Source of the DNA: Prochlorococcaceae cyanobacterium jk18x1bzbins.87
GTDB taxonomy: Bacteria > Cyanobacteriota > Cyanobacteriia > PCC-6307 > Cyanobiaceae
NCBI GenBank assembly: GCA_022826535.1
Contig: JAJDUS010000043.1
Coordinates: forward strand, 10,675 to 74,674
Direction of reading: 5' to 3'
DNA: 64,000 nucleotides
The notes beneath the pieces are model-generated. The model saw nothing but the letters and a program-made list of their open reading frames with translations. It was not told where the DNA came from and ran no database searches. Made by a program: the position numbers and the translations under genes. Below are positions 6,164-51,799 of the stretch, one piece after another. Every line of letters begins with the position of its first letter. The stretch's first letter is position 1.

Positions 6164-7060
6164 ATGGCCCATCAACAGCCCTTTGAATTGGAGACCTATC
6201 TTCAGGCCAAAAAGGTGCAGGTGGAAGCCGCCCTTGCAGAAGCCGTGACGCTGGACCAGCCCGCCAGCCTGCGGCAGGCCATGGAATACTCCCTGCTGGC
6301 GGGGGGGAAGCGTTTGCGCCCCATTCTCTGTCTGGCCAGTTGCGAACTGGCGGGGGGAGAGCCCCGGTTGGCCCTGCCCACGGCCTGCGCCCTGGAGATG
6401 GTGCATACCATGTCCTTGATCCATGACGACCTACCGGCCATGGATGACGATGACCTGCGCCGGGGCCGCGCCACCAACCACAAAATGTTTGGTGAAGCCA
6501 TGGCGATCCTGGCCGGTGACGCTCTGCTCTGCCAGGCGTTCGAGATGGTGGCGGGACGCTCATCCGGTGTTCCGGCCCAGCGGCTGCTGGCGGTCACCAC
6601 CGCACTGGCCAGGGCTGCGGGCGCACCGGGTCTTGTGGGGGGGCAGGTGGTGGATTTGGCCAGTGAGGGGAAGCGGGTCCCCCTGGAAACCCTGGAGTTC
6701 ATTCACCTCCACAAGACAGCAGCCCTGCTGGAGGTGTCGGTCATCAGCGGCGCCCTCATTGCTGGGGCTGCTGAGGCGTTGGTGGCTGATCTGCGCCGCT
6801 ACGCCCGCAATATCGGCCTGGCGTTTCAGATCATTGACGACATCCTGGATGTCACGGCAGACAGTGCCACCTTGGGCAAAACCGCGGGCAAGGATCTGCT
6901 CACCGAAAAGAGCACCTACCCCGCGCTGCTGGGCCTTGAGGCGTCTCGTCAGAGTGCGACTGCATTGATCACGGCCGCCAAGGCTGCCTTGGCCCCACAG
7001 GTGGAGGCCACCCGCCCGCTGTTGGCCTTGGCGGACTTCATTGCCAACCGTAACCACTGA
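6164..7060 (+). CDS. crtE: geranylgeranyl pyrophosphate synthase
   Basis: Motifs [41 protein letters not shown]. Confidence 0.95.
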
Positions 7061-7272
7061 CCCCCGGCTGTCCTGGGAGATGGGACACAAGCCCCGCTCT
7101 TCAGGACAGCTTTTTCTTTGCTGCACCCTGGGGGTACGGACATGGAGTCCACCTCGGCTCGTCCCCCAGGCAGCAGCAGGCCGTGGCGTGGCAATCCACC
7201 TGAACGGTGTGTGCTTAAGCTCTCAGCGGAGAAGGAATCTCTGCCCTTCACGGTGGGGAGGAAGTCAACACC

Positions 7273-37555: not shown

Positions 37556-37667
37556 GGGAGACCCCCATTCTCCGGGTCAGCAGTCATTATGCAAGGCCAT
37601 TATCCACAGCTATTGGCCCTCGGCTGTCCCGGGGCATAAGCCCCGTTCTTCGGGAGGGTTTTACTTT

Positions 37668-37697
37668 GTGCTTATGTTCTTAGTGCTTATGTTCTTA
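37668..37697. repeat. perfect 15-bp tandem duplication
   Basis: GTGCTTATGTTCTTA x2. Confidence 0.85.
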
Positions 37698-49394: not shown

Positions 49395-50639
49395 ATGCAT
49401 CCGCATCCGATCTCTGTCACGTCCAAATTCACCTCGGCTCTGGGTTCCGGTCTCATGGCACTGGGCCTGTGTGCTGCCACAACCCCTGGCCTTACGCAAA
49501 CAGATCAGGTGGTCAAGATCGGTGTCCTTTTTGGCTTTACCGGCCCGATTGAGTCCCTCACTCCGCCCATGGCCACCAGTGGGGAGTTGGCCTTTAAGGA
49601 GATTTCAGACAGTGGGCAGTTTTTGGGGGGCAAAACCATTGAATCCGTACGGGCTGATTCCACCTGTGTTGATGCCGCCGCCGCCACAGCCGCTGCTGAG
49701 CGCCTGGTCACTTCAGATCAGGTGACTGCCATTCTCGGTGCGGATTGCTCCGGCGTCACCATTGCCGTCGCCAATAACGTTGCCGTTCCCAAAGGCATTG
49801 CCCTCATCTCCCCCTCAGCCACATCTCCAGCCCTCTCCACCATTGACGATAACGGCCTGTTCTTCCGCACATCCCCTTCTGATGCTCGCCAAGGGAAAGT
49901 GCTGGCCCAGGTGATCAAGGGGCGTGGCTACGACACCATTGCCATCACCTACACCAAGAATGACTACGGCAAGGGCCTGAGCGAGAGTTTGCAGGCAGGC
50001 TTTGAAGCCTTGGGTGGAATGGTCACCATCAACACGGCCCATGAGGACGGTAAGGCCGATTACACATCCGAGGTGGGTGAGTTGGCAGAGGCGGGCGGTG
50101 AACTGCTGGTGGTGCTTGGCTATGCCGACCAGGGCGGCATTGGCATTATTCGGGCGGCGCTGGATACCGGCGCCTTTGAAACCTTCGGATTGGCGGACGC
50201 CATGTACTCCCAGCCCTTCCTGGACGACATTGGGGCTGATGGCAATGATTTGACCGGTTCCTTTGGGACGGTGCCCGGCAATGAAGGCGAAGGGGCCGAT
50301 CTGTTCAGGGAGATTTCCATGGCTGCCGGTGGGGATGGGCAAAGTGCCTTCACTGGCGAGAGCTACGATGCAGCAGCCCTCATGGCCCTGGCCATGCAAA
50401 GGGGTGGCGAGGCCACATCAGAGGCGTTGGCCGGCAACATGATGGCTGTGGCCAATGCGCCAGGGGAAAAAATTCTGCCCGGGGAACTGGGCAAGGCGCT
50501 GGAGATCCTCGCGGCTGGTGGTGAGGTGGACTACGTGGGCGCCACGAATGTGGAGCTTGTCGGTCCTGGCGAGGCCTCCGGCAGCTATCGGGAATACAAA
50601 GTCCAAGGCGATGAATTCATAACCGTTCGGTTCCACTGA
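49395..50639 (+). CDS. branched-chain amino acid ABC transporter substrate-binding protein
   Basis: KIGVLFGFTGP, SPSATSPALS, FFRTSPSD, YDAAAL. Confidence 0.92.
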   Translation: MHPHPISVTSKFTSALGSGLMALGLCAATTPGLTQTDQVVKIGVLFGFTGPIESLTPPMATSGELAFKEISDSGQFLGGKTIESVRADSTCVDAAAATAAAERLVTSDQVTAILGADCSGVTIAVANNVAVPKGIALISPSATSPALSTIDDNGLFFRTSPSDARQGKVLAQVIKGRGYDTIAITYTKNDYGKGLSESLQAGFEALGGMVTINTAHEDGKADYTSEVGELAEAGGELLVVLGYADQGGIGIIRAALDTGAFETFGLADAMYSQPFLDDIGADGNDLTGSFGTVPGNEGEGADLFREISMAAGGDGQSAFTGESYDAAALMALAMQRGGEATSEALAGNMMAVANAPGEKILPGELGKALEILAAGGEVDYVGATNVELVGPGEASGSYREYKVQGDEFITVRFH

Positions 50640-50640
50640 C

Positions 50641-50890
50641 CGGGAAAGAACGGGATTCAAGCCCTGTCGTAAACGACGGCTTTTGATGCTAGACTGACCT
50701 TGACGCTTTTCTGGCGCTTCAGTCTTGAGACCCTCGCCGCCGCTGCGGCGGCGAGGCTGAATGGACGTGGAGACCATGGAAGACTCCCTCGGGAGCAGCA
50801 GGCCATGGGGCGTCAAGCCACCTGAATCCTGAATGCTCAGGCATCCAGAAAAGAAGGAATCCTCGCCATTCATGGGGAGGAGTCGTTCAA
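50641..50890 (+). mobile_element. non-autonomous IS200/IS605 mini-element (PATE) with omega-RNA-like right end
   Basis: TGAC immediately 5'. Left-end hairpin preceded by CAAG. Right-end hairpin CCTCGCCA-TTCA-TGGGGAGG preceded by GAAT and followed by a terminal TCAA. No tnpA/tnpB ORF. Confidence 0.75.
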
Positions 50891-50986
50891 GATGCGCTGC
50901 TGCTTCTGTGCTGCAAGGCCGTAGAAGCAATGTTCTTTGCCACAATGCCATGGGGAACGGAAGCTTAAGGTTCTGCCCCTCTGCTG

Positions 50987-51799
50987 TTGGCAATGTCTGC
51001 CCCAGGCATGGATGTTCCCGGAAGCCCCCCCATGATTCGCATCGATGGCCTCCATATGCATTTTGGCGGCATCCGGGCTGTCAATGGCGTCAGCCTGGAG
51101 ATCCCCAGGGGCAAGATCACCGGTCTGATCGGCCCCAACGGTGCGGGCAAAACAACCTTATTTAATGTGGTTGCCGGGCATCACAAGCCCACTGCCGGCC
51201 ATGTCTACCTGGAGGAGGAGGAGGTGACGGGCCTGGCGGCCCATGAACTCTTCGCCCGGGGTTTGCTGCGCACCTTTCAAGTGGCCCACGAGTTTTCAAC
51301 CCTCACGGTGCGGGAGAACCTGATGATGGTTCCCAGTGGACAACCAGGAGAACACCTGTGGAATGCCTGGTTCCGCACGGGGCAGGTGCAGGCGCGGGAG
51401 AGGGACATTCGCCACCGGGCTGACCAGGTGCTGGATTTTCTCCAAATCACCCCTGTGGCAAACCAGTTGGCTGGAAACTTGAGTGGTGGCCAGAAAAAGC
51501 TTCTGGAATTGGGGCGCACCATGATGATCAATCCCAAGGTTGTCTTCCTTGATGAAGTGGGCGCCGGGGTGAACCGCACCCTGCTCAAAACCATCACCAC
51601 GGCCATTCAACGCCTCAACCGGGAACAGGGCTACACCTTTTGCATGATCGAGCATGACATGACTCTCATCAGCCAGCTTTGTGATTCAGTGGTGGTGATG
51701 GCTGAGGGCATGGTGCTCTGCCAGGGGAGCGCCGCTGAGGTGCAGCGTGACCAGCGGGTGATTGAGGCCTACCTTGGCAAAAATCTGCTCGACCCATGA
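50987..51799 (+). CDS. ABC transporter ATP-binding protein (LivG-like)
   Basis: GPNGAGKTT, LSGGQ, LDEVGAG, IEHD. Confidence 0.94.
   Translation: MAMSAPGMDVPGSPPMIRIDGLHMHFGGIRAVNGVSLEIPRGKITGLIGPNGAGKTTLFNVVAGHHKPTAGHVYLEEEEVTGLAAHELFARGLLRTFQVAHEFSTLTVRENLMMVPSGQPGEHLWNAWFRTGQVQARERDIRHRADQVLDFLQITPVANQLAGNLSGGQKKLLELGRTMMINPKVVFLDEVGAGVNRTLLKTITTAIQRLNREQGYTFCMIEHDMTLISQLCDSVVVMAEGMVLCQGSAAEVQRDQRVIEAYLGKNLLDP

Follow-up and report, generated by a model that had tools for sequence, protein, structure and literature searches.

A probable relic of the IS200/IS605 family that retains an omega-RNA scaffold within a transporter operon of a sponge-symbiotic picocyanobacterium

What occupies the gap between the first two genes of a transporter operon in a sponge-symbiotic picocyanobacterium, and can it still act there? 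The question arises from a stretch of 64,000 nucleotides of Prochlorococcaceae cyanobacterium jk18x1bzbins.87 (the window; contig JAJDUS010000043.1, positions 10,675–74,674), in which 250 bp devoid of gene-sized open reading frames (ORFs) lie behind the stop codon of an ATP-binding cassette (ABC) substrate-binding protein gene. The genome (G000) is a metagenome-assembled genome (MAG) of 2.49 Mb in 145 contigs, with 59.8% G+C and 95% completeness, and belongs to the ‘Candidatus Synechococcus spongiarum’ group, a genus of sponge symbionts whose genomes G000–G009 were compared. An initial annotation of the window had proposed an ORF-less IS200/IS605 derivative with both ends and an omega-RNA scaffold, and this identification is upheld by empty sites in relatives and by homology to tnpB 3′ ends. 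Positions 50641–50890 very probably represent a non-autonomous, internally deleted IS200/IS605 element, i.e., a palindrome-associated transposable element (PATE), which has kept both ends and the scaffold and is most likely no longer mobile, a relic whose guide RNA is an orphan. The element, its parts and the two neighbouring genes lie on the forward (+) strand.

Borders, ends and empty sites

Within the 250-bp element (50641–50890), the only listed ORFs are of 41–49 amino acids and are chance ORFs. The element is preceded by TGAC (50637–50640), of which the binding-protein stop codon TGA (50637–50639) forms part, and is followed by GATGCGCTG. The orthologous operon was found in seven other genomes of the genus, and the 250 bp are missing from all seven. 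Four of these (G002, G004, G005 and G008) fuse TGAC straight to GAT(C/G)CGCTG, giving the empty site ...CGCTGAC|GATCCGCTG...; the joints read ...GGTTCCGCTGAC|GATCCGCTGCTTCTT... in G004, ...TTGAC|GATCTGCTGCTG... in G002, ...CTGAC|GATCCGCTG... in G008 and ...CTGAC|GAGCCGCCG... in G005, and the filled junction of the window reads ...CACTGAC[250 bp]GATGCGCTGCTGCTTC.... In the other three (G003, G009 and G001) the site reads TGAT, and the 250 bp are again missing. Comparison of the window with G002, G004, G005 and G008 revealed no target-site duplication. Thus, the empty junctions of the relatives define the insertion as exactly 50641–50890, 3′ of TGAC and without duplication, and they match the empty joint TGAC|GATGCGCTG that had been predicted from the filled site. 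Duplication-free insertion 3′ of a fixed tetra- or pentanucleotide is a hallmark of the IS200/IS605 family. From the empty sites and scans of left ends, TGAC is the target tetranucleotide, lying outside the element, and the predicted left cleavage site as well as the predicted target-adjacent motif (TAM) of the cognate TnpB.

The window holds a second ORF-less copy at 7062–7268 (+), preceded by TGAC at 7058–7061, which belongs to a short subfamily without the 5′ hairpin of the scaffold. It directly follows the TGA stop of a 355-codon ORF, and the site is empty in all eight same-genus genomes that have the locus. Given that the window copies are missing from the relatives, the family must have transposed in this lineage after its split from those species. 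Flanking DNA is ~85–92% identical to the compared species (79–80% for the most distant, G001). Within the species itself, searches of metagenome contigs with the exact empty- and filled-junction patterns gave zero matches each.

The two ends are asymmetric rather than inverted repeats, and each carries a subterminal hairpin that is kept with compensatory changes across copies. The left end (50641–50699), delimited by alignment and a hidden Markov model (HMM), contains a guide-like CAAG (50658–50661), an imperfect hairpin (~50661–50680, stem 50664–50679) and a T-run (50681–50684). At the right end (50857–50881), a guide-like GAAT (50857–50860) leads into an imperfect hairpin, TCCTCGCCA/TGGGGAGGA (50860–50881), with one G.G mismatch and 83% of alignment cells paired. 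Five nucleotides past the hairpin foot stands TCAA (50887–50890), the predicted right cleavage site and final bases of the element, which is the right end in 22 of 29 copies. All positions given in the initial annotation (for TGAC, CAAG, TCAA and the palindrome treated below) were confirmed in the sequence, as were the GAAT and the right-end hairpin named there.

A close comparison for these ends is IS608 of Helicobacter pylori, the structural model case for IS200/IS605 transposition. In IS608 the left cleavage site TTAC goes with the guide AAAG and the right cleavage site TCAA with the guide GAAT; measured from the feet of the hairpins, TTAC is 19 nt away on the 5′ side at the left end and TCAA 10 nt away on the 3′ side at the right end (PMC3201880; PMC5934647). 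The predicted right guide and cleavage site of the window element are identical to these, the element ends 9 nt after its right hairpin foot, and at the left end ~21 nt separate TGAC from the foot of the hairpin. Furthermore, the position-wise rule that relates AAAG to TTAC and GAAT to TCAA also relates CAAG to TGAC. This deduction had been made in the initial annotation, whose two IS608 pairs agree with the published values. CAAG and GAAT stand where guides would be expected, and the predicted CAAG/TGAC and GAAT/TCAA pairing fits the consensus of the copy family. However, the left target here is TGAC rather than TTAC, neither tnpA nor tnpB is on board, and the related autonomous copies in G007 have divergent genes as in IS605, not co-oriented ones. 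Membership of the serine-recombinase family IS607 was considered and rejected, as the ends form hairpins, the sites are TCAA and TGAC, and tnpA of the Y1 type is linked in G007.

The omega-RNA scaffold and its copy family

The element is one of many. Repeats were searched for with BLAST, nhmmer, iterated nhmmer and a covariance model built in this analysis; the 159-nt core recurs ~32–34 times in its own genome (32 copies by iterated nhmmer, which converged, and 34 by the covariance model), with nhmmer E-values down to 1e-40. Most copies begin after TGAC and end in TCAA, and chance is far from explaining the features of the element. When aligned, the copies all break off sharply on the 3′ side at (G)TCAA, past which the flanks are unrelated, and their 5′ border falls directly after TGAC. 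About 19 copies are ORF-less, with lengths of 205–290 bp, and the full-length members bearing tnpB are ~1.25 kb long. Most ORF-less copies share the left-end consensus TGAC|C(A/C)CCGGCTGTCCTGGGAYACAAGCCCC, followed by the hairpin and then TTTTT-cTGTGCTAnAnT. An exact TGAC precedes 17 of 29 left-end matches in a strict scan (exact TGAC no more than 16 nt upstream of the left-end match) and in ~19 of 27 by eye. The other copies are 68–86% identical to the window copy, which itself (C7:61406-61564, 155 bits) has the second-best score against the family covariance model.

Groups of ORF-less copies have deletion junctions in common (e.g., ...TGCTAGACTTTGGCGTTGAGGCATCAACCTTGC|CCTCGCC...), which indicates that the ORF-less subfamilies multiplied as PATEs and not by repeated independent deletion. 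Across the genus, the RNA model finds 34 copies in G000, 32 in G004, 20 in G009, 11 in G006, 10 in G002, seven each in G005 and G007, two in G008, one in G003 and none in G001. Beyond the genus, 59 genera of the same taxonomic family were sampled, and the covariance model detected the element family in only one. Two observations concern individual copies. A left-end-like match stands alone at 37621–37672 (+) of the window (nhmmer E=7e-10); it lacks both a preceding TGAC and a right end within 2.5 kb, and is probably the leftover of another copy. The copies C7:78084-78234 and C11:1302-1450 have the same right flank (GTCATCAGTAGGGCCTCTG...) past TCAA, which points to a segmental duplication or a composite repeat and not to separate insertion events.

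The nature of the interior is revealed by the longer members of the family. With the window sequence alone as the query, the tnpB 3′ end on contig C79 is retrieved at E=2.7e-7, and the interior shows homology to tnpB 3′ ends in C79, C87, C101 and C112 as well as in G004 and G005, in keeping with the resemblance to tnpB 3′ and omega-RNA regions remarked on in the initial annotation. Seven copies are preceded by the coding sequence ...C..CG...DRDVNAA..IL.AG, the RuvC-III/C-terminal end of TnpB. The C79 ORF, the longest tnpB stretch, matches the Pfam family OrfB_IS605 and the Cas12f1-like TNB domain, and this TnpB of the window’s family aligns with ISDra2 TnpB structures at E=1.5e-44. In C79 and in the intact tnpB loci of sister species, the repeat covers the final ~108 nt of the tnpB ORF plus ~40 nt to TCAA; hence the counterpart of the window scaffold in full-length copies is the end of tnpB together with the right end.

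The same architecture is known from ISDra2 of Deinococcus radiodurans, whose omega RNA (reRNA, right-end element RNA) draws ~150 nt from the end of tnpB together with the right end and continues into ~16 nt of flank that act as the guide (Karvelis et al., 2021; PMC8612924). Because the repeat takes the same position on tnpB loci, the interior at 50732–50890 is, as judged by covariance model, nhmmer and alignment to tnpB-linked RNAs, a true homologue of an omega-RNA scaffold and not a look-alike. Both systems have a scaffold of ~150–160 nt that spans the end of tnpB as well as the right end, with the guide taken (here by prediction) from the flank. They differ in that the predicted TAM here is TGAC rather than TTGAT and that no tnpB ORF is left in the window copy. 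The window RNA is ~58–61% identical to the RNAs adjoining intact tnpB genes.

The scaffold can be folded into a 5′ hairpin (H1), a GTGG/CCAC closing helix, a CCAYG/CRTGG helix around hairpin H2, a hairpin H3 and the right-end hairpin. H1 (50732–50756) had been described as a perfect 12-bp hairpin; the palindrome is real, but it has 11 pairs with a 3-nt loop, and in full-length copies it encodes the ...ILAAG... segment of the TnpB C-terminus. This structure is hand-built, with the window copy as its source and a MAFFT alignment as its frame, and pairing was counted in 24 copies against controls with slid partners. As a whole, 74% of cells pair versus 38–50% in the controls, double-change cells number 65 versus 22–34, and a covariation score of 0.264 compares with 0.131 or less, with the pairing and double-change counts being inflated by related copies. 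Compensatory changes are seen in four hairpins and mostly in H2 (CTCC/GGAG, 50784–50795; 88% of cells paired, changes on both sides in three of four pairs), H3 (50828–50849; 71% paired, changes on both sides in four of nine pairs) and the right-end hairpin. RNAalifold recovered only 9 pairs from the raw MAFFT alignment, and folds of single sequences were noisy.

Searches of Rfam with the region at E≤10 and with the whole window at gathering score returned only chance matches (CRISPR-DR29 and two microRNA-family models), all on palindromes, so that the search for a known omega-RNA model suggested by the initial annotation came back empty. This absence of a match to any omega-RNA-type family is what could be said for regarding the 250 bp as ordinary conserved intergenic DNA, or as an RNA leader or riboswitch specific to the operon, with a coincidental likeness to transposon ends. 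However, Rfam is also blank on the bona fide tnpB-linked RNAs at the intact tnpB loci of relatives, which makes its negative result uninformative. The empty sites in all seven genus members with the locus, the ~34 dispersed copies and the homology to tnpB 3′ ends refute that explanation, to which next to no credence is given. Separately, the tnpB-adjacent RNA of C79 (L046 2490-2627, equal to C79:6598-6735) has a sub-threshold Rfam match to HgcC (21.6 bits, E=0.14), which may reflect a distant relation to this archaeal RNA family or chance.

Partner proteins and the orphan guide RNA

Mobility and guide function both depend on proteins that the element does not encode. The host genome has no PF01797 match for a Y1 tnpA, and tblastn with the congeneric TnpA was blank. 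Furthermore, every tnpB in the assembly is broken: a frameshift separates the first ~39 codons of C79 (MKQCYCVYPY...), whose frame ends in TAA, from the rest, and one zinc-finger cysteine is changed to arginine, and the genes of C87, C101 and C112 are fragmentary. Since tnpA is missing and only broken tnpB genes are present, the window copy is most likely an immobile relic, and its guide RNA is most likely either an orphan or reliant on copies that were not assembled. Elsewhere in the genus, intact TnpBs of ~400–420 amino acids, overlapped by the homologous RNA, are encoded in G004 (two) and G005 (one). Y1 tnpA is confined within the genus to G007, where four loci carry it in divergent orientation beside tnpB and the homologous RNA, with stops in some copies. 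TnpBs that are ~65% identical are abundant in freshwater Prochlorococcaceae MAGs. As a side observation, contig C74 holds two degenerate TnpB-like frames 3 kb apart (C74:30068-30979 and C74:33469-34056), with zinc-ribbon and RuvC-III motifs partly recognisable. The first looks like another TnpB lineage; the second is ~58% identical to the TnpB C-terminus of the window’s family and has a weak match to the family RNA model.

In its active period, the element would have been mobilised by a Y1 TnpA acting in trans through single-strand ‘peel and paste’ transposition, with excision at TGAC| and TCAA|. Transcription from a -10-like box in the left end, or read-through from the operon, might then have yielded an omega RNA with the 3′ guide GATGCGCTGCTGCTTC. 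Given a cognate TnpB, cleavage directed by this RNA would be limited to the vacated donor joint TGAC|GATGCGCTG..., and homologous repair would restore the element; the occupied site would be spared, as the target there follows TCAA and not TGAC.

The predicted 16-nt guide (50891–50906) is flanking DNA, its extent being taken from the reRNA architecture of TnpB (PMC8612924), and it matches the flank of the empty site in relatives save for species differences. No second target of this guide with an adjacent TGAC was found in the host genome at up to three mismatches. For the guides of the whole family, second-site searches of the same genome gave chance matches only (3–4 mismatches), none of them flanked by TGAC. 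As the guide target in the occupied site is preceded by TCAA rather than by the TAM, the RNA would have no licensed target inside the operon. In a single-sequence fold, the predicted guide (GCGCUGCUGCUUCUG, 50894–50908) pairs with the conserved scaffold segment GGGAGCAGCAGGCC (50790–50806); in any RNA produced, such pairing would hide the guide, but it is probably a coincidence of the GCAGCAG motif.

TldR proteins are nuclease-dead, TnpB-like repressors that work with guide RNAs. The initial annotation had imagined the RNA loading a trans-encoded TnpB or TldR, to cut the empty allele or to bind inside the operon; this proposal is unsupported for this genome, given that no intact TnpB or TldR-like protein and no TnpA was detected in the assembly and the target within the operon lacks a TAM. 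A TldR-type repressor was rejected because the host genome has no intact TnpB-like ORF of any kind and no guide has a TAM-adjacent second-site target. All that TldR systems and the window element have in common is the idea of an omega-like RNA working outside a transposon life cycle.

A more substantial alternative to the relic is a functional, stand-alone guide-RNA gene, whose omega RNA is transcribed and loaded in trans by an intact TnpB from an unassembled copy or co-resident element, so that the PATE is kept by cutting of the vacated joint. At least 3–4 distinct and independent deletion derivatives each retain at least 135 nt of scaffold, which is beyond the ~50 nt of right end that TnpA should need and suggests past selection for keeping the guide RNA. 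In addition, the hairpins are preserved through compensatory changes, the window copy ranks second against the family model, sister species have intact TnpB, and PATEs often carry omega RNAs for use in trans (Meers et al., 2023; PMC10055086). However, with every tnpB of the assembly frameshifted or fragmentary and tnpA absent, with copies just 68–86% identical to the window copy and only ~58–61% identity to RNAs at intact tnpB, and with compensatory changes that may date from ancestral master copies rather than from current maintenance, a working guide-RNA gene is judged unlikely.

Several points also weigh against the identification of the locus as an immobile PATE relic. Intact tnpA or tnpB could sit on unassembled copies, the genome being a 145-contig MAG of 95% completeness. 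The left end of the tnpA-bearing elements in G007 escapes the left-end HMM, and recognition of window-type ends by the G007 TnpA is assumed. Guide changes among decayed copies are unmatched by changes in the flank, i.e., there is no covariation of guide and cleavage site. Finally, both the covariance model and the tested RNA structure derive in part from the window copy itself.

PATEs of the IS200/IS605 family have long been known. They ‘often encode omega RNAs’ that would have to be used in trans by the TnpB of other elements, and Geobacillus stearothermophilus is noted to have ORF-less elements bearing omega RNAs (Meers et al., 2023; PMC10055086). The window element is thus another case of a described kind: it has no ORF, carries a hairpin at both ends, is present in many copies, would need TnpA in trans and contains an omega-RNA region that would require TnpB in trans. 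It differs in its host, a sponge-symbiotic picocyanobacterium, in its unrelated sequence, in TGAC as the target and TAM, and in that neither partner protein is intact in the assembly. Known IS200/IS605 biology is left unchanged by the finding. Its value lies in a clean, fully delimited PATE with an omega RNA, for which the ends are exactly placed and both an empty site and a predicted target/TAM are available, in an unusual host setting, and in the new predicted TAM (TGAC) and scaffold that it offers for the intact ~400-amino-acid TnpBs of sister species. To our knowledge, the family has not been described in ‘Ca. Synechococcus spongiarum’ and related Prochlorococcaceae. Its history would be one of transposition in the lineage after speciation and later loss of the proteins, with orphan guide-RNA genes remaining.

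The transporter operon and possible effects in cis

The interrupted operon comprises five genes, which encode a binding protein, two ATPases and then two permeases. The first (49395–50639) encodes a Liv/Urt-type (HAAT family) ABC substrate-binding protein of 414 amino acids, which matches the NCBIfam branched-chain amino acid binding protein family under the curated cutoff. The next (51029–51799) encodes a LivG/UrtD-like ABC ATPase, identified from the ORF list and NCBIfam, and the 389-nt gap between the stop of the former and the start of the latter holds the element. In sister species the same operon has no insert, and the stop-to-start gap is 12 nt (G005 and G008), 24 nt (G002) or ~125–165 nt (G003 and G009).

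Some miniature inverted-repeat transposable elements, e.g., Correia elements, act as cis-regulatory cassettes, and the window element may have been exapted in this manner. Under such a scheme, the left hairpin and T-run would attenuate transcription after the highly expressed binding-protein gene, and TGCTAGACT or the structured RNA would set expression of the ATPase and permease genes. The hairpin at 50664–50679 followed by CTTTTG was scored as terminator-like in a terminator scan, and TGCTAGACT (50687–50695), an extended -10-like box read from sequence alone, is kept in many left ends and lies ~10 nt ahead of the tnpB start in a full-length copy. Furthermore, of the 17 copies flanked by TGAC (e.g., C25:10016, C138:10574, C109:4143 and C5:21960), eight have a target whose TGA terminates an ORF at least 80 codons long. 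However, the operon of sister species runs without the insert, a promoter scan found no sigma-70-type site, and stop-codon placement is to be expected where only harmless insertions survive; the clustering of surviving insertions at gene ends is probably due to survivorship and not to targeting. Exaptation as a regulatory cassette is therefore considered improbable. An effect in cis on the operon is possible for the immobile relic too, and its sole present-day effect is probably that of a structured 250-bp spacer between the binding-protein and ATPase genes, with a terminator-like hairpin and a promoter-like box.

A broader variant is that the ~20 ORF-less elements of the genome are maintained as orphan structured RNAs with a role for the host, either as terminator/promoter cassettes after TGA stops or as guides for TnpB from co-resident strains or phages of the sponge microbiome. 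In that event, a genome without an encoded effector would retain working guide-RNA genes; this reading is regarded as highly doubtful.

The DNA that remains between the element and the ATPase gene (50891–51031) shows no unusual folding (z = +0.87) and no repeat elsewhere in its own genome. About 125 bp of this residual intergenic DNA (50903–51028) is present in G000, G003, G004 and G009 and missing from G002, G005 and G008; a lineage-specific indel and an older insertion are the two explanations considered.

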